Below, piece after piece: positions 7,956 through 64,000 of a stretch of 64,000 bases of DNA. Under the pieces are notes generated by a model, which was given only the letters and a program-made list of their open reading frames with translations, was not told the DNA's origin and ran no database searches. The stretch is from the NCBI RefSeq assembly GCF_056746865.1, contig NZ_CM163382.1; one strand, written 5' to 3'. The first letter of the stretch is position 1; each line of letters begins with the position of its first letter. Made by a program: the position numbers and the translations under genes.

Positions 7956-8032
<77 letters not shown>

Positions 8033-8064: not shown

Positions 8065-8141
<77 letters not shown>

Positions 8142-8174
8142 TCACCGTACTGCTTTACTTCATCAAATTTTAAT

Positions 8175-8251
<77 letters not shown>

Positions 8252-8459: not shown

Positions 8460-9557
8460 ATGAAAGGACGTTGGGTAAAGTACCTTCTTATGGGCACGGT
8501 TGTGGCAATGCTTGCCGCCTGCTCTTCCAAACCAACCGATCGCGGACAGCAATATAAAGACGGGAAATTTACCCAGCCTTTCTCTCTGGTGAACCAGCCA
8601 GATGCCGTTGGCGCGCCGATTAACGCCGGTGATTTTGCCGAGCAAATTAACCATATCCGTAATTCGTCACCGCGTCTGTATGGCAACCAGAGTAATGTTT
8701 ATAACGCGGTGCAAGAGTGGCTGCGCGCAGGCGGTGATACCCGCAATATGCGCCAGTTCGGCATTGATGCCTGGCAGATGGAAGGTGCCGACAACTATGG
8801 TAACGTGCAGTTTACAGGCTATTACACGCCGGTAATTCAGGCGCGCCATACCCGCCAGGGCGAGTTCCAGTATCCGATTTACCGTATGCCGCCAAAACGT
8901 GGTCGTCTGCCGTCTCGTGCGGAGATCTACGCGGGGGCATTGAGTGATAAATATATTCTCGCTTACAGTAACTCCCTGATGGATAACTTCATTATGGATG
9001 TGCAGGGTAGTGGGTATATCGACTTTGGTGATGGCAGTCCGCTTAACTTTTTCAGCTATGCAGGGAAAAACGGTCATGCCTATCGCAGCATTGGTAAGGT
9101 GCTGATCGACCGTGGCGAAGTGAAAAAAGAAGATATGTCGATGCAGGCGATTCGTCACTGGGGCGAAACACACAGTGAAGCCGAGGTTCGCGAGCTGCTG
9201 GAACAGAACCCGTCTTTCGTCTTCTTTAAACCGCAATCTTTTGCACCGGTGAAAGGGGCAAGTGCGGTGCCGCTGGTTGGCCGTGCTTCTGTTGCCTCCG
9301 ATCGTTCAATTATTCCGCCAGGTACTACCTTGCTGGCAGAAGTGCCGCTGCTGGATAATAACGGCAAATTTAACGGTCAGTACGAATTGCGTCTGATGGT
9401 GGCGCTGGATGTCGGTGGCGCAATCAAAGGCCAACACTTCGATATCTATCAAGGGATCGGGCCGGAAGCCGGGCACCGCGCAGGTTGGTACAACCACTAT
9501 GGACGTGTCTGGGTGCTGAAAACGGCTCCGGGCGCAGGTAACGTCTTTAGCGGCTGA
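8460..9557 (+). CDS. mltA: Membrane-bound lytic murein transglycosylase A (lipoprotein, 365 aa)
   Basis: Track ORF 8178..9557 is over-extended across the tRNAs; true start is the ATG at 8460 (MKGRWVKYLLMGTVVAMLAACSS, lipobox LAAC). Confidence 0.9.
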   Translation: MKGRWVKYLLMGTVVAMLAACSSKPTDRGQQYKDGKFTQPFSLVNQPDAVGAPINAGDFAEQINHIRNSSPRLYGNQSNVYNAVQEWLRAGGDTRNMRQFGIDAWQMEGADNYGNVQFTGYYTPVIQARHTRQGEFQYPIYRMPPKRGRLPSRAEIYAGALSDKYILAYSNSLMDNFIMDVQGSGYIDFGDGSPLNFFSYAGKNGHAYRSIGKVLIDRGEVKKEDMSMQAIRHWGETHSEAEVRELLEQNPSFVFFKPQSFAPVKGASAVPLVGRASVASDRSIIPPGTTLLAEVPLLDNNGKFNGQYELRLMVALDVGGAIKGQHFDIYQGIGPEAGHRAGWYNHYGRVWVLKTAPGAGNVFSG

Positions 9558-48506: not shown

Positions 48507-49424
48507 TTACCAGCGACCGGACGCGCCGCCACCGCCAGAAGAACCGCCCCCGCCGCTAAAGCCACCGCCTGAGCCTCCGCCACTTGAGCCGCCACCGGAA
48601 GAGGATGAAGAAGAACCTTTTCTTGAAGCTCTTTCTTTACCGAGCTTCTTGTATTTAGCGCGTAGCTTTTTATTAACGATAAGCCAAAAAATAAGCAGTG
48701 GTACGATGGCAAAAGGCGTGAGCATACCGCAGGCAACGATTAAATTGGTCCATGGTCCTGGCTCGGCAACATAGAGGAATACCATCCCGTAAATGGCGCC
48801 AGTGAGAGTGATCCAGGGTAAATTCGACGGATCGGTAAAAACAATAAAATATGAAAGTACCGCCAGCAATATAATTACAGCAAGCGATAATGGAATAAAG
48901 GGATTGATACTGTAATAATCCCCCCTGTCTTCCGATAATTCACCATTCAACAGAAGCGCGCCGATATTTTCGCTTGCCAGTGTTAATCCACCCATCAGGT
49001 CATCACTTTTGAAGGCAGGGATCAAAATATCTCTGATAATCTTCGCCGCTTGCAGGTCGGTAACCACCCCTTCCAGCCCGTAGCCAACCTCAATACGAAC
49101 AGCATGCTCCTCCCAGGCAACCAGAAGTAAAATACCATCGTTTCTCTGCTTATCTCCCAGTTTCCAGCTATCAAAAACGCGTGCTGCATATTGTTCAATG
49201 GAATCGTCTCCGGTGGACGGCACTACTAATACAGCGACCTGCGCCCGTGTTTTATGTGTAATATCCTGCAGCTGCTGCGTTAGCGATTGCTGTTCAGACG
49301 TGCTTAACGTACCAGTAATATCAGTCACTTGTTGGCGCAGCTCCGGCACAGCAATTTGCTGGGCAAGCCCGGGAAGGCTCCACAAAGCAAGTAGAATAAA
49401 GATTAAGCGCATTACGATCACCAA
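48507..49424 (-). CDS. TPM-domain (TLP18.3/Psb32/MOLO-1 family) membrane protein, paralog 1; ends in a Gly/Ser tail ...GGGGSSGGGGASGRW. Track start at 49424 is a TTG; the first ATG at 49412 (MRLIFILLALWSLPGLA) is the likelier start
   Basis: 305-aa track ORF: signal peptide, TPM domain, hydrophobic segments, low-complexity tail; adjacent to eno, the position of ygcG in K-12 as I recall it. Confidence 0.85.
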   Translation of the reverse strand: MVIVMRLIFILLALWSLPGLAQQIAVPELRQQVTDITGTLSTSEQQSLTQQLQDITHKTRAQVAVLVVPSTGDDSIEQYAARVFDSWKLGDKQRNDGILLLVAWEEHAVRIEVGYGLEGVVTDLQAAKIIRDILIPAFKSDDLMGGLTLASENIGALLLNGELSEDRGDYYSINPFIPLSLAVIILLAVLSYFIVFTDPSNLPWITLTGAIYGMVFLYVAEPGPWTNLIVACGMLTPFAIVPLLIFWLIVNKKLRAKYKKLGKERASRKGSSSSSSGGGSSGGGSGGGFSGGGGSSGGGGASGRW

Positions 49425-50566
49425 CGGCCGGATGAACCGCCGCCTCCTGAAGAACCGCCACCACCGCGGAAAGAATTTCTCGACGAAGAGCGAGAATGAG
49501 CATTACGATTCCCCGTTTTCCTGTTGCTTTTTTCTCCTGATCCCAGCTTAAGATTGCCAGTAAATTTGGCCACAATGATCAGCAGAACGATGCCAGCAAT
49601 GGTTATTGGGCCGATAAAATGATCAATTAACCCAATAATTGTTGAGATGAATGCAATATCTTTATTACTGGCGAACACCAGGCACCATCCCACAATAATT
49701 ATCAGCATCACGACAAACAATGAATTTCGTCCTGATTCACGAACCTGCGGAGTCTTCTTTTGTTTTTTCACTTTAGCGTTTTTATTTTTTGGGGTCAGCA
49801 TCATAGGAAATACGCGGCACATATTAAAAACTACCGCGAGACGCTGCTTGCAGGTTGTTGCTAACAATAAACTAAAACAAACGACCGATACCCGCCGAAT
49901 GATGACATCGTCCTGAAAGGAGAAAAACCAGACCATAGGGGTAATCATCGATATCATCCATATGCCACGCCCTGGGCGGCTGGCAAATCGCCAGAGGACA
50001 ACGATGGCAACGATCATCAGCAGTGTCCAGGCAAGACAAGGCAGCGAACGTTGCGGATTAGCAAACAGATGATTGGCTAAAGCATCCAAAGGGCTAAGGT
50101 TCGCTTTGATATGGGTAAACTGTGCGATGCTTTCAATTCCGCCCGTTAATCCAGCAAAGAGATTGTTTTTTTCGAATTCTGGCTGCATATGGTAACGAAC
50201 AATTTGCGAAGCTTGTTCCGGCGGCAACATCTGTTCCAGTCCATGTCCAATCTTCATTGACGCCAGCCCTTCCGGCCATACGACGAGAATTAAGATACCT
50301 TCGCCATATCGCTTCTCTCCAACGGGTTTCCAGTGATATACCCCGTATCTCTGCGAGGCTGCAAGTTTAATGTTTTTGCCCCCTGTGGTCGGCGTGACCA
50401 ACACGGCCACCTGGAAGTGGTTTTGCTGCTCGAGAGTCTGTAATTGTTGAGTTAAAGCAGTTTGTTCTTCTGTCGTTAATGTCCCGGTTAAGTCAGTTAC
50501 TGAAGGCAATTGTTCAGCGAATACCTGAAAACCGCATAGCATCAGAAGTAAGAGAAAAATACGCAT
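49418..50566 (-). CDS. TPM-domain-like membrane protein, paralog 2 (divergent, longer membrane region); ends ...GGGGSSGGGGSSGRW
   Basis: 382-aa ORF: signal peptide MRIFLLLLMLCGFQVFA, several hydrophobic segments, Lys-rich linker, Gly/Ser tail; stop lies 5 nt before the paralog 1 ATG. Confidence 0.8.
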   Translation of the reverse strand: MRIFLLLLMLCGFQVFAEQLPSVTDLTGTLTTEEQTALTQQLQTLEQQNHFQVAVLVTPTTGGKNIKLAASQRYGVYHWKPVGEKRYGEGILILVVWPEGLASMKIGHGLEQMLPPEQASQIVRYHMQPEFEKNNLFAGLTGGIESIAQFTHIKANLSPLDALANHLFANPQRSLPCLAWTLLMIVAIVVLWRFASRPGRGIWMISMITPMVWFFSFQDDVIIRRVSVVCFSLLLATTCKQRLAVVFNMCRVFPMMLTPKNKNAKVKKQKKTPQVRESGRNSLFVVMLIIIVGWCLVFASNKDIAFISTIIGLIDHFIGPITIAGIVLLIIVAKFTGNLKLGSGEKSNRKTGNRNAHSRSSSRNSFRGGGGSSGGGGSSGRW

Positions 50567-50580
50567 ATCAATTCCTTTTG

Positions 50581-51474
50581 TTACCAGCGCCCGGAAGCGC
50601 CACCGCCACCAGATGAACCGCCACCACCGCTGAAATTGTCATTGTTGAATGAAGAGGATGACGATGATGAATAGTGGGAGGAAGAATTGCTTCTTGTATG
50701 GCGTGATGGCTGGTTGGCATCACGCATCGAATCCCGAACCTTTTTGCCGAAGGGGGTAAAAGCGATGGCGACAGCCAGGAACGGTGTGGCGAAGCAGAGT
50801 AATGTTGCGAGTACTCCCCAGCTTCCGCTGAAGCCTGCTATAGGTAAAACAAAGGCCAGTACAATAGCTGCGAAGCAAATTACTCCCAGCGTTTTGATAT
50901 ATCCTCTGGCAGAAATAAACGTCAGTACTATCGCCCAGACTAACAAAGCCCACCAACCGCTAAAAGGCAAAGGGTGATCGGTCGGTGTTATCGTTGCTAA
51001 ATTATTCCCCGTCAGACGACTTTCAATATCGCTGATTCCCTTTTGCAAACCACCAGCCAGGTCCCCTTTTTTAAATGCCGGAATAATACTGTTGCGAATA
51101 ATTTTCCCGGACTGTGCATCCGTAATAATACCTTCCAGTCCGTAACCGATTTCAATACGCACGGTATGATCCTGCCAGGCGACTAACAGTAGAACGCCAT
51201 CATCGTGGTCTTTATCACCCGGTTTCCAGCTATCGAATACCCGCGTTGCGTACTGCTCGATGGTTTCATCGCCAGTTGTTTCAACCACTAACACGACCAA
51301 CTGTGCGTAGTTTTTTTGCGTCAGGGCTTTAATCTGGTTGGTCAGGGTGTTTACTTCGCTGTTTGTTAATGTGCCGGTTAAGTCATTCACATACTTGGGT
51401 GATTCAGGTACTGGAATTTGTGTGGCAAACACAGATGAACAGAAGAAAGCCATAAGGAAGATAAAATTTCGCAT
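50581..51474 (-). CDS. TPM-domain membrane protein, paralog 3; ends ...GGGGSSGGGGASGRW
   Basis: Track ORF 50581..51504; start taken at the ATG at 51474 (MRNFIFLMAFFCSSVFA), 13 nt after the LemA stop with a GGGGAAG Shine-Dalgarno-like sequence. Confidence 0.8.
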   Translation of the reverse strand: MRNFIFLMAFFCSSVFATQIPVPESPKYVNDLTGTLTNSEVNTLTNQIKALTQKNYAQLVVLVVETTGDETIEQYATRVFDSWKPGDKDHDDGVLLLVAWQDHTVRIEIGYGLEGIITDAQSGKIIRNSIIPAFKKGDLAGGLQKGISDIESRLTGNNLATITPTDHPLPFSGWWALLVWAIVLTFISARGYIKTLGVICFAAIVLAFVLPIAGFSGSWGVLATLLCFATPFLAVAIAFTPFGKKVRDSMRDANQPSRHTRSNSSSHYSSSSSSSFNNDNFSGGGGSSGGGGASGRW

Positions 51475-51487
51475 AGAACTTCCCCGC

Positions 51488-52090
51488 TTAATGAGCATTA
51501 GCATTCTGGCTAAAATCTATTGTTGGGGCTTTACTTACTGCGGCGACATCATCCGGCAAATAATTTTTCTTTGGTGTGTAATCCATGACCTTTGCGGTTA
51601 ACACAGCGGGGAATTTGCGGATAGTGACATTATATTGTTCAATGGCTTTAATATATCTTCCTCGCGCAACGGCAATCCGATTTTCACTTCCTTCAAGCTG
51701 TACCATTAAATTTTGATAGAGTTCCTGAGATTTTAACTCAGGGTAACGCTCACTAATTATCGTTAACTGACCGAGAGTGCGAGTCACCTGCGCTTGAGCC
51801 TGTTGCCAGGCTTGTAATTTTTGTTCATCGCCCGGAGTTTGCTGAAGATCGCTACTGGCGCGATTAGCCTGGCTACGAGCCAATGTTACGGCTTCCAGTA
51901 CATCTCGTTCATGGCTGGAATAACCTTTAATGCTGGCGACAAGATTAGGAATAAGATCGGCGCGACGTTGATATTGATTCAATACCTCAGACCAGGAGGC
52001 GTTAACCTGCTCATCATAGGTTTGAATATCGTTATATCCACAGCCTGATAAATTGAAAATAAATATAATTACGATGAATATTCTGAGCAT
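51488..52090 (-). CDS. LemA-family lipoprotein
   Basis: 200-aa ORF; N-terminus MLRIFIVIIFIFNLSGC has a lipobox (LSGC); LemA-like coiled region; first gene of the apparent LemA-TPM operon. Confidence 0.85.
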   Translation of the reverse strand: MLRIFIVIIFIFNLSGCGYNDIQTYDEQVNASWSEVLNQYQRRADLIPNLVASIKGYSSHERDVLEAVTLARSQANRASSDLQQTPGDEQKLQAWQQAQAQVTRTLGQLTIISERYPELKSQELYQNLMVQLEGSENRIAVARGRYIKAIEQYNVTIRKFPAVLTAKVMDYTPKKNYLPDDVAAVSKAPTIDFSQNANAH

Positions 52091-53159: not shown

Positions 53160-53273
53160 TCAATGGATTAAGTGCTCTTTAACATAATGGATGTGTTGTT
53201 TGTGTGATACTATAAAGTTGGTAGATTGTGACTGACTTAAAAAATCAATAATTAATAATAGGTTATGTTTAGT
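53160..53273 (+). promoter_or_regulatory. AT-rich CRISPR leader
   Basis: AT-rich tract immediately upstream of the first repeat, on the side opposite the degenerate terminal repeat. Confidence 0.5.
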
Positions 53274-53851
53274 GAGTTCCCCGCGCCAGCGGGGATAAAC
53301 CGTCTGGGCCGGATTCGATCCCGCGCGTACCGGAGAGTTCCCCGCGCCAGCGGGGATAAACCGTACAATCCCGCATCGAAACTGAATACCCCGATGAGTT
53401 CCCCGCGCCAGCGGGGATAAACCGTTGCCCAGGCTTTTGCGAAAATTTGTGATTTGGAGTTCCCCGCGCCAGCGGGGATAAACCGACACGGGGCAGATTG
53501 AGCAGGACTGCGACCTCGAGTTCCCCGCGCCAGCGGGGATAAACCGGCAGCAGATTTACAAACAGATCGGAGATTACTGAGTTCCCCGCGCCAGCGGGGA
53601 TAAACCGCGCGGCCTGCGCTCGCGTAAAATCAGTTGCAGGAGTTCCCCGCGCCAGCGGGGATAAACCGTCCGCGCAAGCCTATATAAACCAGATTGATCA
53701 GAGTTCCCCGCGCCAGCGGGGATAAACCGCGAAATCGCACGCGCTTCCCGCATGGGGGAAAGAGTTCCCCGCGCCAGCGGGGATAAACCGTGTAAAAGTC
53801 TTGGTTTTGGCGCATCATTTGTGAGTTCCCCGCGCCAGCGGGGATAAACCA
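53274..53851 (+). CRISPR. Type I-E CRISPR array: 10 repeats of 29 bp (GAGTTCCCCGCGCCAGCGGGGATAAACCG) and 9 spacers of 32 bp; the last repeat is degenerate at its 3' end
   Basis: Exact 61-bp periodicity; repeats start at 53274, 53335, 53396, 53457, 53518, 53579, 53640, 53701, 53762, 53823; no cas genes in the window. Confidence 0.95.
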
Positions 53852-54379
53852 CCATATAACCCGTTATCTCTTTCTCAAGTTTTTATATTAGCAGTACTCG
53901 TATTAAGCAATATATCCACGTAACACCTCATGTTCAAAATAGCTCTCCATATATGAGAAGTTCACAATTATCGATACAAAAAATCAAATTTAATTAAAGT
54001 GTTAGTTGTATGATACTTAAATCATTAAGAAATTATCATATATTATTTTTTTAATATTGAATTGATGTTTGTTAATTTTTTCTTTAGGATAGTAGTTTGT
54101 TTTTTAAGCTTATTATTCATTGATTAAGTAATAAATCTGGAAATTTGTCTTTGTTTTGAGGCTAATGAGTGGTTTTACATAATCGCCTCTATACGCTGTT
54201 GATGAATAGTTCTTATGAATAAAGATATCCAGTTCATACTTTAAGTGAAAATTGATAAAGTGCGATTCGTATTGTCTTTTATTCTAAATAGACTGGCCCC
54301 CTGAATCTCCAGACAACCAATATCACTTAAATAAGTGATAGTCTTAATACTAGTTTTTAGACTAGTCATTGGAGAGCAG

Positions 54380-54745
54380 ATGATTGATGTCTTAGGACCG
54401 GAGAAACGCAGACGGCGTACTACACAGGAAAAGATCGCTATTGTTCAGCAGAGTTTTGAACCGGGAATGACGGTCTCCCTTGTTGCCCGGCAACACGGTG
54501 TGGCAGCCAGCCAGTTATTTCTCTGGCGCAAGCAATACCAGGAGGGAAGTCTTACTGCTGTGGCCGCAGGAGAGCAGGTCGTTCCTGCCTCTGAACTTGC
54601 TGCTGCCATGAAGCAGATTAAAGAACTCCAGCGCCTGCTCGGCAAAAAAACGATGGAAAATGAACTCCTTAAAGAAGCCGTTGAATACGGGCGTGCAAAA
54701 AAGTGGATAGCGCACGCGCCCTTATTGCCCGGGGATGGGGAGTAA
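54380..54745 (+). CDS. insC: IS2 transposase OrfA (InsC), helix-turn-helix
   Basis: Track ORF 54335..54745; start taken at [13 protein letters not shown] (121 aa). Confidence 0.9.
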
Positions 54746-55608
54746 GCTTAGTCAGCCGTTGTCTCCGGGTGTCGCGTGCGCAGTTGCACGTCATTCTCAG
54801 ACGAACCGATGACTGGAAAGATGGTCGCCGCAGCCGTCACTCAGATGATACGGATGTGCTTCTCCGTATACACCATGTTATCGGAGAGCTGCCCACGTAT
54901 GGTTATCGTCGGGTATGGGCGCTGCTTCGCAGACAGGCCGAACTTGATGGTATGCCTGCGATCAATGCCAAACGTGTTTACCGGATCATGCGCCAGAATG
55001 CGCTGTTGCTTGAGCGAAAAACCGCTGTACCGCCATCGAAACGGGCACATACTGGCAAAGTGGCCGTGAAAGAAAGCAATCAACGATGGTGCTCTGACGG
55101 GTTCGAGTTCCGCTGTGATAACGGAGAAAAACTGCGAGTCACGTTCGCGCTGGACTGCTGTGACCGTGAGGCACTGCACTGGGCAGTCACTACGGGCGGC
55201 TTCGACAGTGAAACAGTACAGGACGTAATGCTGGGAGCGGTGGAACGCCGCTTCGGCAACGAGCTTCCGGCGTCTCCAGTAGAGTGGCTGACGGATAATG
55301 GTTCATGCTACCGGGCTAATGAAACACGGCAGTTTGCCCGGATGTTGGGGCTTGAACCGAAGAACACGGCGGTGCGGAGTCCGGAGAGTAACGGCATAGC
55401 AGAGAGCTTCGTGAAAACGATAAAGCGTGACTACATCAGTATCATGCCTAAACCAGACGGGTTAACGGCAGCAAAGAACCTTGCAGAGGCGTTCGAGCAT
55501 TATAACGAATGGCATCCGCATAGTGCACTGGGTTATCGCTCGCCACGGGAATATCTACGGCAGCGGGCCAGTAATGGGTTAAGTGATAACAGGTGTCTGG
55601 AAATATAG
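54703..55608 (+). CDS. insD: IS2 transposase OrfB (InsD), DDE catalytic domain; overlaps OrfA in the -1 frame (programmed frameshift arrangement)
   Basis: 301-aa ORF recognised as IS2 InsD. Confidence 0.9.
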
Positions 55609-55641
55609 GGGCAAATCCACTAAAGACATCGAGTGTAGTTA

Positions 55642-55780
55642 ATATTCCTTGTAAAAACAGGGATAAACCGAACTAGTTAAAGTTTTTATTATGTTCCCTG
55701 CATCAGCGGGGATAAACCGGACTTGTTATCATTTTTTAAGTTGTCGAACTTATGTTCCCCGCGTCAGCGGGGATAACCAT
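55642..55780 (+). CRISPR. Degenerate CRISPR array remnant (about 3 diverged type I-E repeats, 2 spacers)
   Basis: atattccttgtaaaaacagggataaaccg, atgttccctgcatcagcggggataaaccg and atgttccccgcgtcagcggggataaccat, in the same orientation as the main array. Confidence 0.6.
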
Positions 55781-55825
55781 TCAGGTACGTTCATGCCGGG
55801 CAGTTTCCCGCCCGGCCTTCCTCAC

Positions 55826-57304
55826 TTACGCATTCGACCAGCTCTGGATCGAATCCGCATTCCCCAATTCCCCATGCATCACTTCATACGATTTTTTCAG
55901 GATTACATCAGTATGTTTGGTTAACTCCTTGAAAATGCCTTTATTCATCGCGTCGTAGCGTTTGGCATTGTTCTCAACAGGCATAAAGATATCTTTCACG
56001 CGAACCATTTTGTCGACAGCCGTTGCGTAATCCGGGTATAGCCCCAGACCTACCGCCGTATTGATCGCTGCCCCCAGACTTGCACAACCATTAATGGCGT
56101 TACGGCGTGCCGGAAGGTTGAACACGTCGGCAAAAATCTGCATAAACAGATCGCTGTTCGAACCGCCGCCAGTAATGATCACATGTTTGGCAAAGTGATT
56201 CATTTCATTACACATATTGTCGTAATTGTTCTTCAGCGTCAGCGCCACGCTTTCCAGTATCGAACGATATATCCATGCGTAATCCATGCTGGAATCAAAG
56301 CCGATCATAATCCCGCGTTTGTACGGTTCCCACGGATTGGTCAGCCAGTCCAGCACCGTCATCAGACCATTACAGCCAGGCGGCACACAAGACGCTTTCT
56401 TGTTGAGTAAATCTTCCGGTGAAAGATCCTGTGCTTTGGCATCCTGAATTAACGACTCGCCTAACATGTCGCGCAGCCAGCTCACTGTCCACATGCCTTT
56501 GCGGATACCGTAACCTTCATACAGCAATGTTTGCGGAATAGAAGACATAATTGGCCAGTACGCCACCGGATCTTTCGGCAGTGCTTTGCCGTTCATCATC
56601 AATGCGATGTAAGTGCCAAGAGAAATTACCGCAGTTTCATTATCCAGTAATCCGGCCCCCAGAGCTTCTACCGGTTTATCACTGGTGGTACAAACAACCG
56701 GCAGTCCTGCCGGGAAATGTGTCGCCAGTGCGGCTTGTGGTGTGATATGTCCGAGGACGGTGCCAGGCATTTGCACATCAAAAAGCATATGACGGGGGAT
56801 ATTAAACTTCTCCATGACTGCGGCATCTTCACTCCATGCCCAGGTCTTATAATCCACCGGCCACTGACCAAAATAGTTGGCGATATTGTCTTTAAACTCG
56901 CCGGTTAAGCGATGCGTCAGATAACCTGAAAAAGAGGTGACATATGCCACGTCAGGATTCGTATGTTCGTAAGGGCGTGTAACGCGTGCATCCTGCCAGC
57001 TAATCAACGGCGCAGCTGGCGTGCCATCGGCTTTCAATAACGCACGGCAGCAACGGATGGATCCCAGACCAATACCGACAATATCTTCTTTATTCCCGGC
57101 AAACTGACTCATCAAATCGTGACCGGCAAAACATAATGATGCCCATAAATCGTCGTCAGGATGTTCTGCGGTATCGGCATCTGGCGTGTGCATCGGCTGC
57201 AATAAGCCTTTGCCTTCGCAAACCACATTACCTTCCAGATCATACATCACCACTTTTGTGCTCTGACTTCCGCCATCAATCCCTATGATGTATTTTTTCG
57301 ACAT
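55826..57304 (-). CDS. ygcE: FGGY-family carbohydrate kinase, substrate unknown
   Basis: 492-aa ORF with FGGY kinase N- and C-terminal domains. Confidence 0.9.
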   Translation of the reverse strand: MSKKYIIGIDGGSQSTKVVMYDLEGNVVCEGKGLLQPMHTPDADTAEHPDDDLWASLCFAGHDLMSQFAGNKEDIVGIGLGSIRCCRALLKADGTPAAPLISWQDARVTRPYEHTNPDVAYVTSFSGYLTHRLTGEFKDNIANYFGQWPVDYKTWAWSEDAAVMEKFNIPRHMLFDVQMPGTVLGHITPQAALATHFPAGLPVVCTTSDKPVEALGAGLLDNETAVISLGTYIALMMNGKALPKDPVAYWPIMSSIPQTLLYEGYGIRKGMWTVSWLRDMLGESLIQDAKAQDLSPEDLLNKKASCVPPGCNGLMTVLDWLTNPWEPYKRGIMIGFDSSMDYAWIYRSILESVALTLKNNYDNMCNEMNHFAKHVIITGGGSNSDLFMQIFADVFNLPARRNAINGCASLGAAINTAVGLGLYPDYATAVDKMVRVKDIFMPVENNAKRYDAMNKGIFKELTKHTDVILKKSYEVMHGELGNADSIQSWSNA

Positions 57305-57330
57305 GATTTTTCTCCTGTAATTTTCTGGAC

Positions 57331-58608
57331 TTACTTGCTGCTAGCCATAGCAGGGGCGCTATCAGCAGTACGAATTTTTTGGAACAGCAAAAAGGTAAAG
57401 ACGATCACCATGGCAAGCGCCGCCATGCCCATCAGCCACATATTGCGGTAGGCTTCTGCAGCGGGCAGGGTGTCTTGCCAGTAGCCGATAATCGGGTAAA
57501 CGAAGACATCCGGCAGGAATCCAATCACCGAACAAATACCTACCGTGGTGCCCATAATGTAAGACGGTGTTCTCGCTTCGCCAGGGCAGGCCCAGTACAG
57601 CCCGCGTGAGGCGTAACAGGTGAATCCCAGCAGTAAAATCAGGCCAATCCCCATCGCGACCGATTGCGGGTTAGAGTTCGTGACGAGCAGGGCAGTTAAC
57701 GCCAGCAAGCCGAGTACGGAAAGGATTTGGATCACGCGGGTAGGGGATTTCACTTTGCTGTAGGTGGTGATAATGCCACCAAGTGGGCCGCACAGTGCGC
57801 GGAAGATTTTGTTGATCACAATCCCCATGTAGCTCGCCGCCACCAGCGACATGCCGTACATTTCGGTCAGATAGTTGGTGGAGTAACTCAGAATGGCGTA
57901 GATGGTGAAGACACCAAAAATCACCATGCTGCAATACCAGGTGGTGCTGATGCGCAAAACAGCCAGGATGTCGCTAAGCTGGAATGACTGTTTTTCTTCG
58001 TTATTGGTATTGCGCAGGTTGTTGTTATCGCTAACAAAAAACCAACACAAAATGCCCAGCAGAATGTAAACCACACTATAGATAATAATGACCGTTTTCA
58101 GGCTGGCGCTGTCATCCGGTGCAAAGCGAGAAAAGACCCACATGGTAAACACCGCCAGCGACATTACACCGACGCCGCGCAGCCCTTCCATCCAGCCCAT
58201 AATTTTCCCTTGCTCGCTATGATCGCCCAGCAACGAGGCGGCTTTAATCGACACCGACCACAGCATTAAAATCGTCGTTATCGCAAAGGCGACCTGAATA
58301 CAGAGCATTACCCACAGCGGTGGATATGTTGCCATTAACAGACCCAGTAATCCGGTAATGATCATCGCGGAAGTAATCATTTTGCGGTGTGAAAATTTAT
58401 CGGCAATAACGCCGCTGGGGGCATAAAGAATAATAGCCGCAATACCAAAGGTACTCATTATTAAACCTATCTCGGTATTGCTGAATCCCATAAATTTCGC
58501 CATGGGAATTTGATAAATATAACGTAAATAAGCCAGGTCGAAACTAACGCCGCCGCTAAAACTAATTATCGCGAGGGTTATCCAACGGCGATATGAGTTG
58601 TGTTGCAT
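57331..58608 (-). CDS. yqcE: MFS transporter
   Basis: 425-aa polytopic membrane ORF. Confidence 0.9.
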   Translation of the reverse strand: MQHNSYRRWITLAIISFSGGVSFDLAYLRYIYQIPMAKFMGFSNTEIGLIMSTFGIAAIILYAPSGVIADKFSHRKMITSAMIITGLLGLLMATYPPLWVMLCIQVAFAITTILMLWSVSIKAASLLGDHSEQGKIMGWMEGLRGVGVMSLAVFTMWVFSRFAPDDSASLKTVIIIYSVVYILLGILCWFFVSDNNNLRNTNNEEKQSFQLSDILAVLRISTTWYCSMVIFGVFTIYAILSYSTNYLTEMYGMSLVAASYMGIVINKIFRALCGPLGGIITTYSKVKSPTRVIQILSVLGLLALTALLVTNSNPQSVAMGIGLILLLGFTCYASRGLYWACPGEARTPSYIMGTTVGICSVIGFLPDVFVYPIIGYWQDTLPAAEAYRNMWLMGMAALAMVIVFTFLLFQKIRTADSAPAMASSK

Positions 58609-58926
58609 ATCGTATTCCCATTTGTAATAGACAAAAAAAAGAGAAAAGTAAGCCGCCCTTTCAGGTGGATTACTTTTCTCAGGTCTCTAGTAATTGCAAT
58701 AAGAAATAACATGGAAAGCAGTGGTGTTGTGTGAGAGTAATCACGCTTCTGCTTTTTAAAATTATTTGACAATTCGAATATAACACTGTGATTACGATCA
58801 CATTAGCGATTATGCCCTTATGATAAAAATTATCTCCAGTTACCAGAGATAATGAGAAAGGTAACTTCCCTCTCGCGGGGGAAGTTACCTTTCTTTTTTT
58901 TTGCCTTACGGAAATTGGAGCTAACT

Positions 58927-59712
58927 ATGTCAATCGAATCTCTCAATGCGTTCTCAATGGATTTTTTCTCCCTGAAAGGTAAAACCGCAATTGTTACCGG
59001 CGGGAATAGCGGTTTAGGCCAGGCATTTGCCATGGCGCTGGCCAAAGCAGGCGCAAATATCTTTATTCCAAGCTTCGTTAAAGATAACGGCGAAACAAAG
59101 GAAATGATTGAAAAACAGGGTGTTGAGGTGGACTTCATGCAGGTGGATATCACCGCAGAAGGCGCGCCGCAGAAGATAATCGCCGCCTGTTGCGAACGTT
59201 TCGGTACCGTCGATATTCTGATTAACAATGCCGGTATTTGTAAGCTGAATAAGGTGCTGGACTTCGGTCGTGCCGACTGGGACCCGATGATTGATGTGAA
59301 CCTGACCGCCGCATTCGAGTTAAGCTATGAAGCTGCAAAAATTATGATCCCGCAGAAAAGCGGTAAAATCATTAATATCTGTTCATTATTCTCTTACTTA
59401 GGTGGACAATGGTCACCTGCATATTCTGCCACTAAACATGCTCTTGCCGGATTCACCAAAGCTTACTGTGATGAACTAGGTCAATATAATATTCAGGTAA
59501 ATGGTATTGCCCCTGGCTATTATGCAACAGATATTACGCTGGCGACACGCAGTAATCCAGAAACCAATCAGCGCGTTCTTGATCATATTCCGGCAAACCG
59601 TTGGGGCGATACTCAGGATTTAATGGGCGCAGCCGTATTCCTCGCAAGTCCGGCATCGAATTATGTCAACGGACATTTATTAGTGGTTGATGGTGGTTAT
59701 TTAGTGCGCTAA
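58927..59712 (+). CDS. ygcW: Short-chain dehydrogenase/reductase (SDR)
   Basis: Track ORF 58852..59712; start taken at the ATG at 58927 (MSIESLNAF); TGGNSGLG Rossmann motif and YSATK catalytic motif. Confidence 0.85.
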   Translation: MSIESLNAFSMDFFSLKGKTAIVTGGNSGLGQAFAMALAKAGANIFIPSFVKDNGETKEMIEKQGVEVDFMQVDITAEGAPQKIIAACCERFGTVDILINNAGICKLNKVLDFGRADWDPMIDVNLTAAFELSYEAAKIMIPQKSGKIINICSLFSYLGGQWSPAYSATKHALAGFTKAYCDELGQYNIQVNGIAPGYYATDITLATRSNPETNQRVLDHIPANRWGDTQDLMGAAVFLASPASNYVNGHLLVVDGGYLVR

Positions 59713-59781
59713 TCCATAACGGTGGTTTCTGTTTTCTCTTATTAATGATTATTCCATTTTTATTATCAGGAAGGAATTACT

Positions 59782-61236
59782 ATGTCTTTATCTCGCGCAG
59801 CGATTGTCGACCAGCTAAAGGAAATTGTTGGTGCAGATCGCGTAATTACCGATGAAACAGTATTAAAGAAGAACAGTATTGACCGTTTTCGCAAATTTCC
59901 GGATATTCATGGCATTTATACTTTGCCGATTCCGGCAGCGGTCGTAAAACTCGGTTCCACAGAACAAGTATCCCGTGTGCTGAATTTTATGAATGCGCAC
60001 AAAATTAACGGTGTGCCGCGTACCGGTGCTTCCGCTACCGAAGGTGGGCTGGAAACCGTTGTGGAAAACTCGGTGGTGCTCGACGGCTCTGCCATGAATC
60101 AAATCATTAATATTGATATTGAGAATATGCAGGCCACGGCGCAATGCGGAGTTCCGCTGGAAGTGCTGGAAAACGCGTTGCGTGAAAAAGGTTACACCAC
60201 GGGGCATTCTCCGCAGTCAAAGCCGCTGGCGCAGATGGGCGGCCTGGTAGCAACCCGCAGTATCGGGCAGTTCTCCACACTCTACGGCGCAATCGAAGAT
60301 ATGGTCGTTGGTCTGGAAGCAGTATTGGCTGATGGCACCGTAACACGCATTAAAAACGTACCACGCCGCGCGGCAGGCCCGGACATTCGTCACATCATCA
60401 TCGGCAACGAAGGTGCATTGTGCTATATCACTGAAGTAACTGTGAAAATCTTTAAGTTCACCCCGGAAAACAACCTCTTCTACGGCTATATCCTGGAAGA
60501 CATGAAAACCGGCTTCAACATCCTGCGTGAAATCATGGTGGAAGGGTATCGTCCGTCGATCGCTCGTTTGTATGACGCTGAAGATGGCACCCAACACTTC
60601 ACCCATTTTGCTGACGGAAAATGCGTGCTGATCTTTATGGCTGAAGGTAACCCTCGCATTGCGAAGGCGACGGGCGAAGGGATTGCTGAAATCGTGGCAC
60701 GTTACCCGCAATGCCAGCGAGTGGACAGCAAGCTGATCGAAACCTGGTTTAACAACCTGAACTGGGGACCGGATAAAGTAGCTGCCGAACGTGTGCAGAT
60801 CCTCAAAACCGGCAACATGGGCTTTACCACCGAAGTGTCCGGCTGCTGGAGCTGCATTCACGAAATCTACGAAAGCGTTATTAACCGTATTCGTACCGAG
60901 TTCCCGCACGCCGACGACATCACCATGCTGGGCGGTCACTCCTCTCACAGCTACCAGAACGGCACCAACATGTACTTCGTTTACGACTACAACGTTGTTG
61001 ACTGTAAGCCGGAAGAGGAAATCGACAAGTACCACAATCCGCTCAACAAAATCATCTGCGAAGAAACCATTCGCCTCGGTGGTTCGATGGTGCACCACCA
61101 CGGCATTGGTAAACATCGCGTTCACTGGAGCAAGCTGGAACACGGCAGCGCGTGGACGTTGCTGGAAGGTCTGAAAAAGCAGTTCGATCCTAACGGCATT
61201 ATGAATACGGGTACTATCTATCCGATTGAAAAATAA
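59782..61236 (+). CDS. ygcU: FAD-linked oxidase (FAD-binding PCMH-type, glycolate-oxidase/D-lactate-dehydrogenase-like)
   Basis: 484-aa ORF. Confidence 0.9.
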   Translation: MSLSRAAIVDQLKEIVGADRVITDETVLKKNSIDRFRKFPDIHGIYTLPIPAAVVKLGSTEQVSRVLNFMNAHKINGVPRTGASATEGGLETVVENSVVLDGSAMNQIINIDIENMQATAQCGVPLEVLENALREKGYTTGHSPQSKPLAQMGGLVATRSIGQFSTLYGAIEDMVVGLEAVLADGTVTRIKNVPRRAAGPDIRHIIIGNEGALCYITEVTVKIFKFTPENNLFYGYILEDMKTGFNILREIMVEGYRPSIARLYDAEDGTQHFTHFADGKCVLIFMAEGNPRIAKATGEGIAEIVARYPQCQRVDSKLIETWFNNLNWGPDKVAAERVQILKTGNMGFTTEVSGCWSCIHEIYESVINRIRTEFPHADDITMLGGHSSHSYQNGTNMYFVYDYNVVDCKPEEEIDKYHNPLNKIICEETIRLGGSMVHHHGIGKHRVHWSKLEHGSAWTLLEGLKKQFDPNGIMNTGTIYPIEK

Positions 61237-61329
61237 TGTGTCAGGCAGCGTTCCGCGATGACGGGGCGTTGCCTTTTCGGCTTCTCAGGCGAGAAGCCGT
61301 TCTTATTACCGGACAATGAAGGGATAAAG

Positions 61330-62667
61330 ATGAACACTTCACCGGTGCGAATGGATGATTTACCACTTAACCGTTTTCACTGCCGCATTGCTGCGCTCAC
61401 TTTCGGCGCACACCTGACCGACGGTTATGTCCTCGGCGTCATTGGTTACGCCATTATTCAGCTTACGCCCGCCATGCAACTGACGCCGTTTATGGCGGGA
61501 ATGATTGGCGGCTCAGCACTCCTTGGTTTGTTTCTTGGCAGCCTGGTTCTGGGCTGGATCTCCGACCATATTGGGCGACAAAAAATCTTCACCTTCAGCT
61601 TTTTGCTGATTACGCTTGCTTCGTTTTTACAATTTTTTGCCACCACGCCAGAGCATCTTATTGGACTGCGCATTTTGATTGGCATTGGTCTGGGAGGCGA
61701 TTACTCAGTCGGTCACACCTTGCTGGCTGAATTTTCCCCGCGCCGCCACCGCGGTATTTTGCTGGGCGCGTTCAGCGTGGTGTGGACTGTAGGCTATGTG
61801 CTGGCAAGTATTGCCGGACATCACTTTATTAGCGAAAGCCCGGAGGCCTGGCGCTGGCTGCTGGCATCGGCAGCTCTGCCCGCATTGTTGATTACGTTAT
61901 TACGCTGGGGAACGCCAGAATCGCCACGCTGGCTACTGCGCCAGGGGCGTTTTGCAGAAGCTCACGCTATCGTGCATCGCTATTTTGGTCCCCATGTTTT
62001 ACTGGGCGATGAAGTGGCAACGGCGACCCATAAACACATCAAAACCTTGTTCTCTTCGCGCTACTGGCGGCGCACAGCGTTTAACAGCGTCTTCTTTGTC
62101 TGCCTCGTAATCCCATGGTTTGTGATTTATACCTGGCTGCCAACTATCGCCCAGACTATTGGTCTGGAAGATGCGTTGACCGCTAGCCTGATGCTTAATG
62201 CGTTGTTAATTGTGGGTGCGCTGCTGGGATTAGTTCTGACGCACCTGCTGGCACATCGCAAATTTTTGCTGGGAAGTTTTTTGCTGCTGGCGGCAACGCT
62301 GGTAGTGATGGCTTGTTTGCCTTCCGGCAGTTCATTAACGCTGCTGCTTTTTGTTCTCTTCAGCACCACCATTTCGGCAGTCAGTAATCTGGTGGGCATT
62401 TTGCCTGCGGAAAGTTTTCCTACTGACATTCGCTCGCTGGGCGTCGGTTTTGCCACCGCCATGAGTCGGTTGGGCGCGGCGGTAAGTACTGGCCTGCTGC
62501 CGTGGGTGCTGGCGCAGTGGGGAATGCAAGTCACCTTATTGCTCCTGGCGGCAGTGTTGTTGGTTGGTTTTGTCGTGACCTGGCTATGGGCACCAGAAAC
62601 CAAAGCACTCCCGCTGGTGGCGGCGGGAAATGTTGGAGGTGCGAATGAACATTCTGTTAGCGTTTAA
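61330..62667 (+). CDS. ygcS: MFS sugar-type transporter
   Basis: Track ORF 61258..62667; start taken at MNTSPVRMDD at 61330. Confidence 0.85.
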   Translation: MNTSPVRMDDLPLNRFHCRIAALTFGAHLTDGYVLGVIGYAIIQLTPAMQLTPFMAGMIGGSALLGLFLGSLVLGWISDHIGRQKIFTFSFLLITLASFLQFFATTPEHLIGLRILIGIGLGGDYSVGHTLLAEFSPRRHRGILLGAFSVVWTVGYVLASIAGHHFISESPEAWRWLLASAALPALLITLLRWGTPESPRWLLRQGRFAEAHAIVHRYFGPHVLLGDEVATATHKHIKTLFSSRYWRRTAFNSVFFVCLVIPWFVIYTWLPTIAQTIGLEDALTASLMLNALLIVGALLGLVLTHLLAHRKFLLGSFLLLAATLVVMACLPSGSSLTLLLFVLFSTTISAVSNLVGILPAESFPTDIRSLGVGFATAMSRLGAAVSTGLLPWVLAQWGMQVTLLLLAAVLLVGFVVTWLWAPETKALPLVAAGNVGGANEHSVSV

Positions 62668-63424
62668 AGCCGAACCGGATGCCGGAATGCTGGCGGAAAA
62701 AGAGTGGCAGGCGGCGGCTCAGGGTAATAGCGGACCGGATGTTTCGCTTCTGCGAAGTTTGCTCGGTGCTGATGAACAGGCTGCCGCCGCGCTGCTGTTG
62801 GCGCAGAGAAAAAACGGTACGTCGATGTCTTTAACCGCGTTGAGCATGGGGGATGAACGGGCGTTGCACTGGCTGCGCTATCTTATGGCTCTTGGGTTTG
62901 AGGAAGCTGTATTGCTGGAGACGGCGGCAGATCTGCGCTTTGCGCCGGAATTTGTCGCTCGCCATATTGCCGAATGGCAGTACCAGAATCCGCTGGAGCT
63001 GATAATTACTGGCTGCCAAAGCAGCGAAGGGCAGAATGGGCAAACGCCATTTTTGCTGGCGGAAATGCTGGGCTGGCCCTGCTTCACCCAGGTGGAGCGT
63101 TTTACTCTCGACGCGCCGTTTATCACCCTTGAACAGCGTACTGAAAACGGGCTGCGCTGTTGCCGGGTTCGCTTGCCTGCGGTGATTGCCGTGCGTCAGT
63201 GTGGTGAAGTGGCCTTGCCAGTACCGGGAATGCGCCAGCGAATGGCTGCGGGGAAAGCAGCAATTATCCGTAAAACTGTTGCTGCCGAATCGCCAGCGAT
63301 GCAGTGTCGGCAACTGGCAAGAGCAGAGCAACGACGCGGAGCGACGCTGATTGATGGGCAAACGGTAGCAGAAAAAGCGCAAAAGCTATGGCAGGACTAT
63401 TTACGCCAAAGGATGCAGCCATGA
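62645..63424 (+). CDS. ygcR: Electron transfer flavoprotein beta-subunit-like protein (FixA-like)
   Basis: Track ORF 62630..63424; start taken at MNILLAFKAEPD at 62645. Confidence 0.85.
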   Translation: MNILLAFKAEPDAGMLAEKEWQAAAQGNSGPDVSLLRSLLGADEQAAAALLLAQRKNGTSMSLTALSMGDERALHWLRYLMALGFEEAVLLETAADLRFAPEFVARHIAEWQYQNPLELIITGCQSSEGQNGQTPFLLAEMLGWPCFTQVERFTLDAPFITLEQRTENGLRCCRVRLPAVIAVRQCGEVALPVPGMRQRMAAGKAAIIRKTVAAESPAMQCRQLARAEQRRGATLIDGQTVAEKAQKLWQDYLRQRMQP

Positions 63425-64000
63425 ATATCGCAATTGTGACAATAAATCAGGAGAATGCCGCAATAGCGAGCTGGCAGGCGGCGCAGGATTTCAGCGGTTG
63501 TACCCTGGCGCACTGGAAGATTGAACCTCAGCCCGCTGTGGCGGAACAGGTGCTGGATGCGCTGGTGGAACAGTGGCAGCGAACGCCTGCGGACGTTGTT
63601 CTCTTTCCGCCGGGAACGTTTGGCGATGAACTGTCGACCCGGCTGGCCTGGCGTTTACATGGTGCAAGCATCTGCCAGGTGACTTCGTTAGATATTCCAA
63701 CCGTAAGCGTGCGCAAATCCCACTGGGGAAATGCGCTAACGGCGACGCTGCAAACAGAAAAACGCCCGCTATGCCTTTCCCTGGCGCGTCAGGCGGGAGC
63801 AGCGAAAAACGCCACGTTGCCCTCTGGTATGCAGCAACTGAACATTGTCCCAGGTGCGCTTCCCGACTGGCTGGTTAGCACAGAGGATCTGAAAAATGTT
63901 ACCCGTGACCCATTAGCTGAGGCCAGACGGGTGCTGGTGGTGGGGCAGGGCGGAGAGGCAGATAACCAGGAAATCGCTATGCTGGCAGAAAAGCTGGGAG
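63421..64000 (+). CDS. ygcQ: Electron transfer flavoprotein alpha-subunit-like protein (FixB-like), 3'-truncated by the window edge
   Basis: ATG at 63421 overlaps the ygcR stop; frame stays open to the window end (MNIAIVTINQENAAIASWQ...); absent from the ORF track because no stop is reached. Confidence 0.8.
   Translation, partial: MNIAIVTINQENAAIASWQAAQDFSGCTLAHWKIEPQPAVAEQVLDALVEQWQRTPADVVLFPPGTFGDELSTRLAWRLHGASICQVTSLDIPTVSVRKSHWGNALTATLQTEKRPLCLSLARQAGAAKNATLPSGMQQLNIVPGALPDWLVSTEDLKNVTRDPLAEARRVLVVGQGGEADNQEIAMLAEKLG

Follow-up and report, generated by a model that had tools for sequence, protein, structure and literature searches.

What does the ygc gene cluster of Escherichia coli degrade, and how is its expression controlled? 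The question is raised by a 64-kb stretch of contig NZ_CM163382.1, an E. coli chromosome (the whole stretch is termed "the window" here), which ends within this cluster. An original prediction, made from the letters of the sequence, described the genes ygcE, yqcE, ygcW, ygcU, ygcS, ygcR and ygcQ as a cryptic catabolic island that encodes a complete uptake, oxidation and phosphorylation pathway for a sugar or polyol. We compared a 9-kb query (positions 55000-64000) with RefSeq genomes; query positions 621-9001 are 100% identical to RefSeq E. coli genomes, from which the gene names are taken. In the following we describe a regulatory mechanism, which is well supported by the sequence evidence, and put forward a route from substituted glycerols to dihydroxyacetone phosphate (DHAP) as a reasoned hypothesis. 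The explanation that joins regulation and chemistry is the best that we can offer, and we hold it tentatively.

All seven open reading frames (ORFs) are found where they had been placed, and Pfam agrees with the families named at the time, i.e., an FGGY kinase, two transporters of the major facilitator superfamily (MFS), a short-chain dehydrogenase/reductase (SDR), a flavin adenine dinucleotide (FAD)-dependent oxidase and a pair of electron-transfer flavoprotein (ETF) subunits:

55826-57304, minus strand: ygcE, 492 aa, Pfam FGGY_N and FGGY_C, second gene of the yqcE-ygcE operon
57331-58608, minus strand: yqcE, 425 aa, Pfam MFS_1
58927-59712, plus strand: ygcW, 261 aa, Pfam adh_short, KduD-like SDR oxidoreductase
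59782-61236, plus strand: ygcU, 484 aa, Pfam FAD_binding_4 and FAD-oxidase_C, FAD enzyme resembling alkylglycerone-phosphate synthase (AGPS)
61258-62667, plus strand: ygcS, 469 aa, Pfam Sugar_tr, MFS transporter of the sugar-porter/aromatic-acid symporter type
62645-63424, plus strand: ygcR, 259 aa, Pfam ETF, ETF beta-like subunit
63421-64000 (window end), plus strand: ygcQ, first 193 of 286 codons, Pfam ETF and ETF_alpha, ETF alpha-like subunit

The genes yqcE and ygcE are 26 nt apart, ygcW and ygcU 69 nt, and ygcU and ygcS 21 nt; ygcS and ygcR overlap by 23 nt, and ygcR and ygcQ by 4 nt (ATGA). As anticipated, ygcQ runs past the window; a complete copy, read in the locus of another E. coli genome, encodes a short protein of 286 aa. 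The RefSeq locus continues with the remainder of ygcQ, the convergent genes ygcP, ygcO and ygcN, and then queD and cysJIH. Since ygcP, ygcN and ygcO lie outside, the pathway is not complete within the window. The layout is best explained by a pair of divergent catabolic operons under common regulation (yqcE-ygcE and ygcW-ygcU-ygcS-ygcR-ygcQ) and a third unit, ygcN-ygcO-ygcP, just outside the window.

Regulatory elements between yqcE and ygcW

The divergent operons are separated by a 318-bp spacer, which harbours the following elements, the sites for the cAMP receptor protein (CRP) having been located by pattern search:

58730-58745: second CRP-like site, TGTGAGAGTAATCACG, one mismatch
58787-58802: perfect CRP site, TGTGATTACGATCACA, the sole zero-mismatch match to the consensus in the window
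58829-58903, plus strand: ygcW leader RNA, with the box AGTTACC at 58838-58844 and the complementary GGTAACT at 58860-58866
58854-58904, plus strand: terminator of the ygcW leader found by a terminator scan, a 19-bp stem (58854-58895) followed by U9
58704-58633, minus strand: yqcE leader RNA, with the box AATTACT at 58695-58689, a stem-loop at 58680-58641 and U8 at 58640-58633

The sequence TGTGATTACGATCACA coincides with a CRP peak at ygcW/yqcE in chromatin immunoprecipitation from enterotoxigenic E. coli (PMC4287617), belongs to the highest-affinity CRP sites in vitro (estimated Kd 1.7 nM; PMC12871828), and yqcE-ygcE appears on a list of Crp-activated operons (PMC8085971). A perfect CRP site with binding shown both in vivo and in vitro supports the catabolic character originally ascribed to the cluster. 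The site TGTGAGAGTAATCACG is predicted to lie about 41.5 bp upstream of the yqcE transcription start, which was placed from the spacing to an extended -10 element and the leader box.

Both leader hairpins are located between divergent genes; they are therefore not 3'-end terminators of an upstream gene, and hence constitute elements of the 5' untranslated regions (5'UTRs). The ygcW leader folds with -42.4 kcal/mol (z -6.4) and the yqcE leader with -23.3 kcal/mol (z -3.3), and the two have in common the pattern GAGAAARGTAA…TTACYTTTCT-U8/9. In addition, a 5' box (AGTTACY) is complementary to a segment (RGTAACT) in the 5' arm of the terminator, and this pair covaries. A covariance model termed R1, built from 29 leader copies and run over 1.08 Mb, recovers 64 sense-strand copies, including the ygcW leader with 73.2 bits (E 8e-13) and the yqcE leader with 66.3 bits (E 2.9e-11). 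Within the window and a 32-kb E. coli locus, R1 finds just these two leaders. RefSeq annotation holds no feature at the leader, and Rfam offers no curated family match, the best being a chance-level hit to rliE (25 bits versus a gathering threshold of 90, E 0.97). The first gene behind the 64 copies is ygcW in 30 cases, yqcE in 20, a BCCT transporter gene in six, ygcU in four, an OpuC-type ABC transporter gene and an MttB gene in one case each, and an unclassified ORF in two.

Upstream of ygcW orthologues the element is found in Enterobacterales, Photobacterium, Geosporobacter, Halobacillus, Thalassobacillus, Sporomusa and uncultured Clostridia. Its parts follow a constant order: a promoter and directly behind it the box (A/G)TTACTAGAG, 4-6 nt, GAGAAAAGTAACTTCC…GGAAG..GCTTTTCTC and a U-run. 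The promoter itself varies by group: Bacillota have -35/-10 elements, Enterobacterales an extended -10 element together with a CRP site. Among 5426 E. coli genomes, 5063 contain the yqcE leader once, a count from a 72-nt BLAST search that is blind to the paralogous leader and thus refers to the yqcE type only. A scan of metagenomes for the exact pattern yielded mainly E. coli yqcE leaders and a few further cases in front of MttB and ABC transporter genes. Seven marine contigs (TARA and others), which carry an exact 20-base pattern before a set of genes for 182, 97 and 125 aa, were set aside as probable chance matches, having neither a terminator nor an R1 match.

The covariation extends to both alternative folds. 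Compensatory changes occur in 7 of 15 pairs of the terminator stem. In the competing helix, 33 of 61 parsed copies combine the box GTTAC with the arm GTAAC, 19 combine ATTAC with GTAAT, and six are G·U wobble variants; GTTGC/GCGAC and TCTAC/GTAGC occur once each, one box was mis-parsed, and the pairing of box and arm has no exceptions among the parsed copies. Overall, 92.9% of the cells of the antiterminator helix are paired and five of its seven pairs show compensatory double changes; none of 500 shuffles was as good, and slid registers fall to 4-55%. As E. coli itself holds a G-C type (ygcW leader) and an A-U type (yqcE leader), the covariation does not merely reflect common ancestry. In some Clostridia a second leader copy is found within the operon, between the kinase gene and ygcU and directly in front of the latter (L063:9843-9911, L066:9824-9912, L068:8708-8797), which suggests that ygcW-ygcE and ygcU with the ETF genes are gated separately there.

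The candidate for a factor acting on the leader is YgcP, which matches PF04309 (G3P_antiterm) over its full length (1.4e-62). In a neighbourhood survey of 46 enterobacterial and 37 other loci, a PF04309 gene adjoins the cluster in 40 and 15 cases, respectively. Leader motif and PF04309 gene were both present in 32 cases and both missing in 19, the motif occurred without the gene in five and the gene without the motif in one (Fisher p = 1e-9). YgcP is thus probably the trans-acting factor; both its RNA target and its ligand we infer from this co-occurrence and from family membership.

The closest paradigm is the Bacillus subtilis GlpP system (glpD, glpFK, glpTQ), where the promoter is followed by a GlpP site and a 5'UTR terminator, which is disrupted by GlpP bound to glycerol-3-phosphate (PMC9604022). 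The ygc system likewise encodes a PF04309 regulator together with its targets, places intrinsic terminators right after the promoters in the 5'UTRs of both operons, superimposes catabolite control and includes an FGGY kinase, which makes the presumed phosphorylated inducer. Moreover, the 5' box of glpD, AGTTAATAAGAACGG, and that of the ygc leader, AGTTACTAGAGACGA, are identical at 10 of 15 positions. The systems differ in that the ygc host is Gram-negative and employs CRP rather than CcpA, that the terminator sequences are unrelated, and that the helix between box and terminator arm has no evident counterpart in glpD. The regulons are also distinct: GlpP controls glpD, glpFK and glpTQ, whereas the ygc leader precedes genes for an SDR, an AGPS-like flavoenzyme, ETF and MFS, BCCT, OpuC or MttB proteins.

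Taken together, the ygc operons are very probably governed by CRP and a leader that switches between terminator and antiterminator. Each operon would be transcribed from a CRP-dependent promoter, and its leader would by default fold into the intrinsic terminator. Alternatively, the box AGTTACY could pair with RGTAACT in the 5' arm of the terminator, a fold that YgcP might stabilise when bound to a phosphorylated pathway intermediate. If this role of YgcP is right, expression needs both cAMP-CRP and the substrate. The shared leader RNA backs the co-regulation of the divergent operons, and with it the view that these genes act together. Searches of the literature yielded no description of a mechanism combining CRP with a GlpP-family leader. 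Whatever the substrate, the leader would exemplify a riboregulator of the GlpP family among Gram-negative bacteria, ranging from Enterobacterales to Clostridia and new to Rfam and RefSeq annotation, and the ygcW leader can be used as a ready-made reporter.

Enzymes and proposed chemistry

None of the ten ygc proteins reaches a curated equivalog cutoff in Pfam or NCBIfam, and in a search of 8 million papers for the gene names, and for FGGY, BCCT, ETF and AGPS in combination, the genes turned up only in regulon lists and screens, with no pathway assigned. In this respect the original prediction, which regarded the function as unassigned, stands. The core formed by YgcW, YgcU and YgcE spans E. 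coli to Bacillota and Actinomycetes, and relatives of YgcU occur in at least 553 species genomes. Across 80 genomic loci, this core comprises YgcU (65-75% identity; 71-73% in Sporomusa, Alkalihalobacillus, Desulfobacula and Photobacterium), the SDR (63-81%), the FGGY kinase (42-58%) and usually the antiterminator protein as well. YgcW orthologues always adjoin YgcU, and YgcE orthologues stand beside YgcW/YgcU across phyla. Two further YgcU copies, one 100% identical to the enterobacterial protein in a metagenome-assembled genome of Planctomycetota and one 89% identical in a Chryseobacterium assembly, likely represent assembly contamination.

YgcU is the most informative enzyme of the cluster. 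A search of its profile against solved structures returned AGPS (4bby) as the best and the sole full-length match (7.4e-56), with an alignment in two stretches that cover AGPS residues 179-426 and 521-652. The C-terminal cap or substrate domain of YgcU aligns to AGPS alone among the solved structures. Arg419, Tyr578 and His615-617, residues with catalytic roles in guinea-pig AGPS, correspond to R262, Y398 and H438-440 of YgcU, which are invariant in 12 YgcU orthologues. Both proteins thus share an FAD domain of the vanillyl-alcohol oxidase (VAO) type, the cap domain and the Arg, Tyr and His-loop residues of AGPS (also termed ADPS, EC 2.5.1.26). In AGPS, the Tyr takes the C1 proton of acyl-DHAP, an adduct with flavin N5 forms, the C1 substituent is expelled and an alcohol is added; the reaction is redox-neutral on balance and requires oxidised flavin (PMC3509576). 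YgcU is smaller (484 aa versus 658 aa) and does not show the N-terminal extension and gating helix of AGPS. Since this N-terminal region is absent, YgcU is termed AGPS-like here, and not an AGPS. Presumably it also has no hydrophobic C16 tunnel for the fatty alcohol, and it differs further in being cytoplasmic, catabolic, ETF-linked and CRP-controlled. While AGPS synthesises ethers, YgcU is proposed to cleave a soluble substrate with water. An AlphaFold model of YgcU from a 12-sequence alignment (pLDDT 64) had disordered FAD and C-terminal regions and was not used.

The dedicated ETF-like relay proposed originally is supported. The products of ygcR and ygcQ, together with YgcN (FixC-type models, 361-378 bits, and an ETFQO_UQ-bd domain) and YgcO (FixX, 84 bits), make up a four-component set of the FixABCX type, an assignment at family level, all scores being below equivalog cutoffs. 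Among the surveyed loci, YgcN and YgcO are restricted to Enterobacterales. The set resembles E. coli FixABCX (carnitine) and YdiQRST, which also combine ETF beta, ETF alpha, a FixC-like flavoprotein and a FixX-like ferredoxin, and FixABCX serves a quaternary-amine pathway. However, the partner of the ygc set is a VAO-fold flavoprotein rather than an acyl-CoA dehydrogenase, and YgcQ is short. Outside Enterobacterales, an ETF pair follows ygcU in 27 of the 37 loci. In anaerobes, and in many facultative ones, ygcU is followed by ETF genes; no dedicated ETF genes are found in the aerobic lineages Halobacillus, Virgibacillus, Thalassobacillus, Alkalihalobacillus and Saccharopolyspora, nor in the Erwinia/Pantoea group. 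The lack of ETF in aerobes is consistent with a role in re-oxidising a flavin that must stay oxidised.

In the loci of anaerobes (L004, L063, L066, L068, L204-L207 and others), the ETF genes are followed by a gene for a second, divergent VAO-type flavoprotein of about 470-540 aa, termed FAD2. These loci often contain a second ETF pair as well, and the second EtfA of Photobacterium (L004) carries an N-terminal ferredoxin domain. The E. coli cluster has neither FAD2 nor a second ETF pair or ferredoxin-EtfA.

Such an arrangement is reminiscent of LctBCD of Acetobacterium woodii and of ETF-dependent GlcD-family enzymes, where a VAO/GlcD-fold flavoprotein with a similar FAD domain is encoded beside EtfB and EtfA. 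Accordingly, YgcU might be an ETF-coupled D-2-hydroxy-acid dehydrogenase of the lactate, glycolate or 2-hydroxyglutarate type, the kinase and SDR forming a separate branch. The FAD domain of YgcU indeed matches glycolate oxidase (2.1e-36), LctD (7qh2_C, 2.5e-25) and, more weakly, LDHD and D2HGDH (to 1e-19), ETF genes follow ygcU in most loci, and the second flavoprotein and ferredoxin-domain EtfA of the anaerobes extend the likeness. Yet, all of these matches end at or before YgcU residue 269, and the cap beyond aligns with AGPS only, retaining the Arg, the Tyr and the three-His loop; the GlcD equivalog scores 144.3 bits versus a cutoff of 567.9, and the cap is not of the GlcD type. A 2-hydroxy-acid substrate is without support, electrons in E. 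coli would pass to a FixCX-like quinone reductase, and the alternative gives no reason why ygcU should be so strictly linked to genes for an FGGY kinase, an SDR and a GlpP-type regulator. We therefore consider this alternative improbable.

The remaining enzymes are less distinctive. YgcE belongs to the FGGY family, as predicted, but none of the XylB, GlpK, LsrK, GntK, AraB and FucK equivalogs reaches its cutoff (XylB 142.6 bits versus 380; LsrK 141.5), so that YgcE matches no FGGY family of established specificity. The suggested comparison with FAD oxidases gave a similar outcome: the family holds, GlcD does not, and AGPS is the best match. Among solved structures, YgcE is closest to LsrK (1.4e-29), followed by glycerol kinases. 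YgcW falls short of the KduD model (350.1 bits, cutoff 369) and is also gluconate-5-dehydrogenase-like. YgcS (Sugar_tr, 1.3e-52; no NCBIfam cutoff reached) occurs in Enterobacterales only, in 43 of 46 loci. YqcE matches the D-galactonate (ACS) transporter family weakly, and is present in 44 of the 46 enterobacterial loci; in Photobacterium and Saccharopolyspora, too, its gene follows the leader motif.

This inventory invites an alternative along the lines of the original prediction, namely a pathway for an ordinary sugar or polyol: YgcS or YqcE would import a neutral sugar alcohol, which YgcW oxidises to a ketose and YgcE phosphorylates, while YgcU, ETF and YgcNO act on the phosphorylated polyol as a GlpD-like respiratory dehydrogenase. 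The Sugar_tr membership of YgcS, the proximity of YgcE to XylB, LsrK and GlpK, the KduD- or gluconate-5-dehydrogenase-like nature of YgcW and the CRP control are all compatible with it; an ETF-to-quinone relay suits a dehydrogenase, and a GlpP-type regulator suits a glycerol-phosphate-like inducer. Precedents are the GlpK-GlpD route for glycerol and the EryA-EryB route for erythritol in Brucella, where phosphorylation by an FGGY kinase likewise precedes a flavin-dependent step that feeds the respiratory chain, and central metabolism is joined at the level of triose or tetrose phosphates. Unlike these routes, the ygc cluster possesses an extra SDR and no isomerases, and its flavoenzyme is VAO/AGPS-like instead of belonging to the DAO/GlpD family. 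No isomerase, epimerase or aldolase at the locus would lead a sugar into central metabolism, the substrate domain of YgcU is neither GlcD- nor GlpD-like, and aerobes do without ETF.

The simplest scheme that gives every conserved component a role is the conversion of a substituted glycerol into DHAP, which we regard as conceivable and somewhat short of probable. A 1-substituted glycerol, X-CH2-CHOH-CH2OH, would be imported and phosphorylated by YgcE to 1-substituted glycerol-3-phosphate, the likely ligand of YgcP. YgcW would then oxidise C2 to yield a substituted DHAP (X-CH2-CO-CH2OP), which YgcU could cleave by AGPS-type flavin-N5 chemistry with water as the nucleophile, releasing DHAP and the alcohol X-H. 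From the YgcU flavin, YgcRQ and YgcNO would transfer electrons to the quinone pool, and thereby might keep the flavin oxidised without O2, or remove electrons if cleavage is oxidative. In eukaryotic ether-lipid metabolism, AGPS is accompanied by an alkylglycerol kinase and an SDR-type alkyl-DHAP reductase, the functional analogues of YgcE and YgcW, and the scheme would amount to this route run in reverse on a soluble substrate. Reductive cleavage of the C-X bond by ETF was discarded, as it would yield acetol phosphate, which does not belong to central metabolism.

Neighbouring genes and candidate substrates

Clues to the substituent X come from loci outside Enterobacterales. In 18 of the 22 such loci of at least 15 kb, genes for BCCT transporters, OpuAC-type ABC transporters or MttB are present, several BCCT, OpuC and MttB genes stand directly behind the ygc leader motif, and some loci are flanked by genes for a corrinoid protein and a methyltetrahydrofolate methyltransferase. 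Representative gene orders are given below, single letters denoting the ygc genes, AOR aldehyde:ferredoxin oxidoreductase and Fe-ADH an iron-type alcohol dehydrogenase:

MttB-W-U-R-Q-FAD2-E (three MttB copies in the locus)
P-OpuC ABC-W-E-U-R-Q-FAD2
P-W-U-R-Q-FAD2-E-BCCT
W-U-R-Q-FAD2-E-MttB-AOR-PrpD-like-Fe-ADH

Outside Enterobacterales, the substrate is therefore likely to be a quaternary amine. In other phyla, the same conserved enzymes are thus found, under the same leader, with MttB and transporters of the betaine type, which together with the points listed above makes an ordinary sugar or polyol an unlikely substrate. The assignment to a "sugar or polyol" in the original prediction was probably too generic; its interpretation as a whole is partly supported, with a substrate that is probably not an ordinary sugar.

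Recurrent accessory genes suggest that X-H is a quaternary-amine alcohol, which is subsequently oxidised to the acid. They encode Zn-ADH, Fe-ADH or aldo-keto reductases (AKR), and aldehyde dehydrogenases (ALDH) resembling betaine-aldehyde or succinate-semialdehyde dehydrogenase (SSADH), or AOR, i.e., enzymes leading from alcohol to acid. Aspartase-like lyases in Alkalihalobacillus (L003:1932-3281) and Desulfopila (L051:16412-17773), which are orthologous, 41% identical to each other and below the AspA cutoff, are candidates for an amine-eliminating step on a betaine with an aspartate skeleton. From the SSADH-like enzymes and these lyases one would expect a C4 skeleton of the aspartate/succinate type. 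Homoserine betaine, the ether-linked head group of the betaine lipid diacylglyceryl-trimethylhomoserine (DGTS), would fit such a skeleton, and choline from diacylglyceryl-carboxyhydroxymethylcholine (DGCC) is a speculative alternative. The leading candidate for the substrate is consequently a deacylated betaine lipid such as glyceryl-homoserine betaine, a specific assignment that is rather unlikely to be right in detail. The deacylated DGCC head group (GCC) has been reported in a marine animal (PMC10362313).

Two other quaternary amines were considered and set aside. Phosphocholine is a published substrate of MthB and would come from glycerophosphocholine; a pathway for the latter explains neither the neighbouring ADH, ALDH and lyase genes nor why the simple GlpQ route should be insufficient. 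With 3-trimethylammonio-propanediol, the accessory oxidoreductases are left without a role.

Put together, the observations would sketch a widespread, undescribed pathway around YgcW, YgcE and YgcU, which cleaves glyceryl ethers by reversed ether-lipid synthesis, a combined picture that we consider doubtful. It would act on the deacylated head groups of DGTS, DGCC or diacylglyceryl-hydroxymethyl-trimethyl-β-alanine (DGTA) and release DHAP together with homoserine betaine or choline, either of which would then be oxidised, demethylated by MttB-family enzymes or deaminated by an aspartase-like lyase. ETF would keep a non-redox flavin oxidised in anaerobes, and the regulon would be controlled by a new, phylum-spanning and protein-dependent terminator/antiterminator RNA recognised by a GlpP-family protein. 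If true, AGPS-type flavin chemistry would here be put to catabolic use for the first time, and bacteria would have a turnover route for betaine lipids, compounds that marine algae contain in abundance, with a bearing on the cycling of quaternary amines and trimethylamine in the gut and the sea. For some ten E. coli genes that are present in nearly every strain and lack a function, the list of candidate substrates is narrowed to 1-substituted glycerols, especially betaine glyceryl ethers.

Several points weigh against this picture. BCCT, OpuC or MttB genes occur in none of the 46 enterobacterial loci, which contain MFS carriers instead, one of them of the sugar-porter family; the quaternary amine may therefore not transfer to E. 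coli, where the substituent, like the transporter set, may differ from that in other phyla. The order of kinase before SDR is a guess, and the gene order W-E-U in Bacillota fits an SDR acting first as well. The chemistry of AGPS is redox-neutral and does not require tight linkage to ETF, which a true dehydrogenase would fit at least as well, and the alignment of YgcU begins only at AGPS residue 179. Accessory genes for alcohol and aldehyde oxidation are common, and here they derive from only about 4-6 independent lineages. The model has no place for the FAD2 protein of the anaerobes, nor for a Fae-like gene described below. Finally, the functions of the ygc proteins, the binding of YgcP to the leader and its ligand are deduced from sequence.

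The Fae homologue (PF08714, 5.6e-50) is encoded beside the core together with an AKR in the Erwinia/Pantoea group (L034, L039, L048) and in SAR324 (L050). The Fae-like genes are accompanied by an SSADH-like ALDH, in SAR324 just a 218-aa Aldedh ORF. A separate, LysR-controlled operon of Erwinia, Pantoea and Serratia begins with ygcS and includes the genes for the Fae-like protein, the AKR and the SSADH-family ALDH. The occurrence of Fae homologues in two unrelated lineages is odd, as the hosts are not known to use tetrahydromethanopterin. Opp/Dpp-type ABC transporter genes that follow W-U in Erwinia and Pantoea were set aside; judging by the gene order of E. coli, they look like an unrelated iaaA-gsiABCD operon.

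Conservation and flanks of the cluster

The term "island" does not apply to the ygc cluster. At least 80% of the 9-kb query is covered in 5049 of 5426 complete E. coli genomes (about 93%), the GC content per kilobase ranges from 0.42 to 0.57 around an overall 0.50 and bears no foreign signature, and the same arrangement beside cysJI is found in Citrobacter and in Klebsiella spallanzanii and relatives. The cluster thus shows no strain-variable presence, no atypical composition and no flanking mobility genes, as the neighbouring insertion sequence (IS) element breaks an array of clustered regularly interspaced short palindromic repeats (CRISPR) and does not flank the ygc genes.

The cluster might still be a decaying remnant, silent, with no current substrate and kept by drift. 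No phenotype is known, and in the only functional test that was found, a study of enterohaemorrhagic E. coli, ygcU was induced 1.69-fold by D-serine and its deletion remained without phenotype. The terminator of the ygcW leader is very strong, and some truncated YgcU clusters exist in databases (P0009, P0028). On the other hand, all ORFs of the cluster are intact, in the window as in about 93% of complete genomes, and the proteins are 87-98% identical to their counterparts in Citrobacter and Klebsiella. Moreover, leader, covarying box and CRP site are all conserved, which indicates purifying selection and renders a cryptic remnant highly improbable.

That the cluster abuts a CRISPR/IS2 region, as originally described, holds:

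53265-53854: ten type I-E CRISPR repeats with 61-bp spacing
54335-55608: ORFs of an IS3-family (IS2-like) element between the CRISPR parts, HTH_Tnp_1 and rve
55682-55783: two degenerate CRISPR repeats

In the IS-free strain 118UI, a single unbroken CRISPR array is annotated between queE and ygcE. Further upstream, the eno-queE interval (48507-52090, minus strand) carries four genes, for LemA and three TPM-domain proteins by the annotation of the other E. coli locus, which we take to be a strain-variable replacement of the ygcG region of K-12. Within the cluster, a 9-bp GC-rich hairpin (CGGCTTCTC…GAGAAGCCG) at 61278-61299 lies 20 nt inside the annotated start of ygcS. Judging from this position, the real start of ygcS may be further downstream than annotated; YgcS of K-12 is presumably listed as 445 aa.

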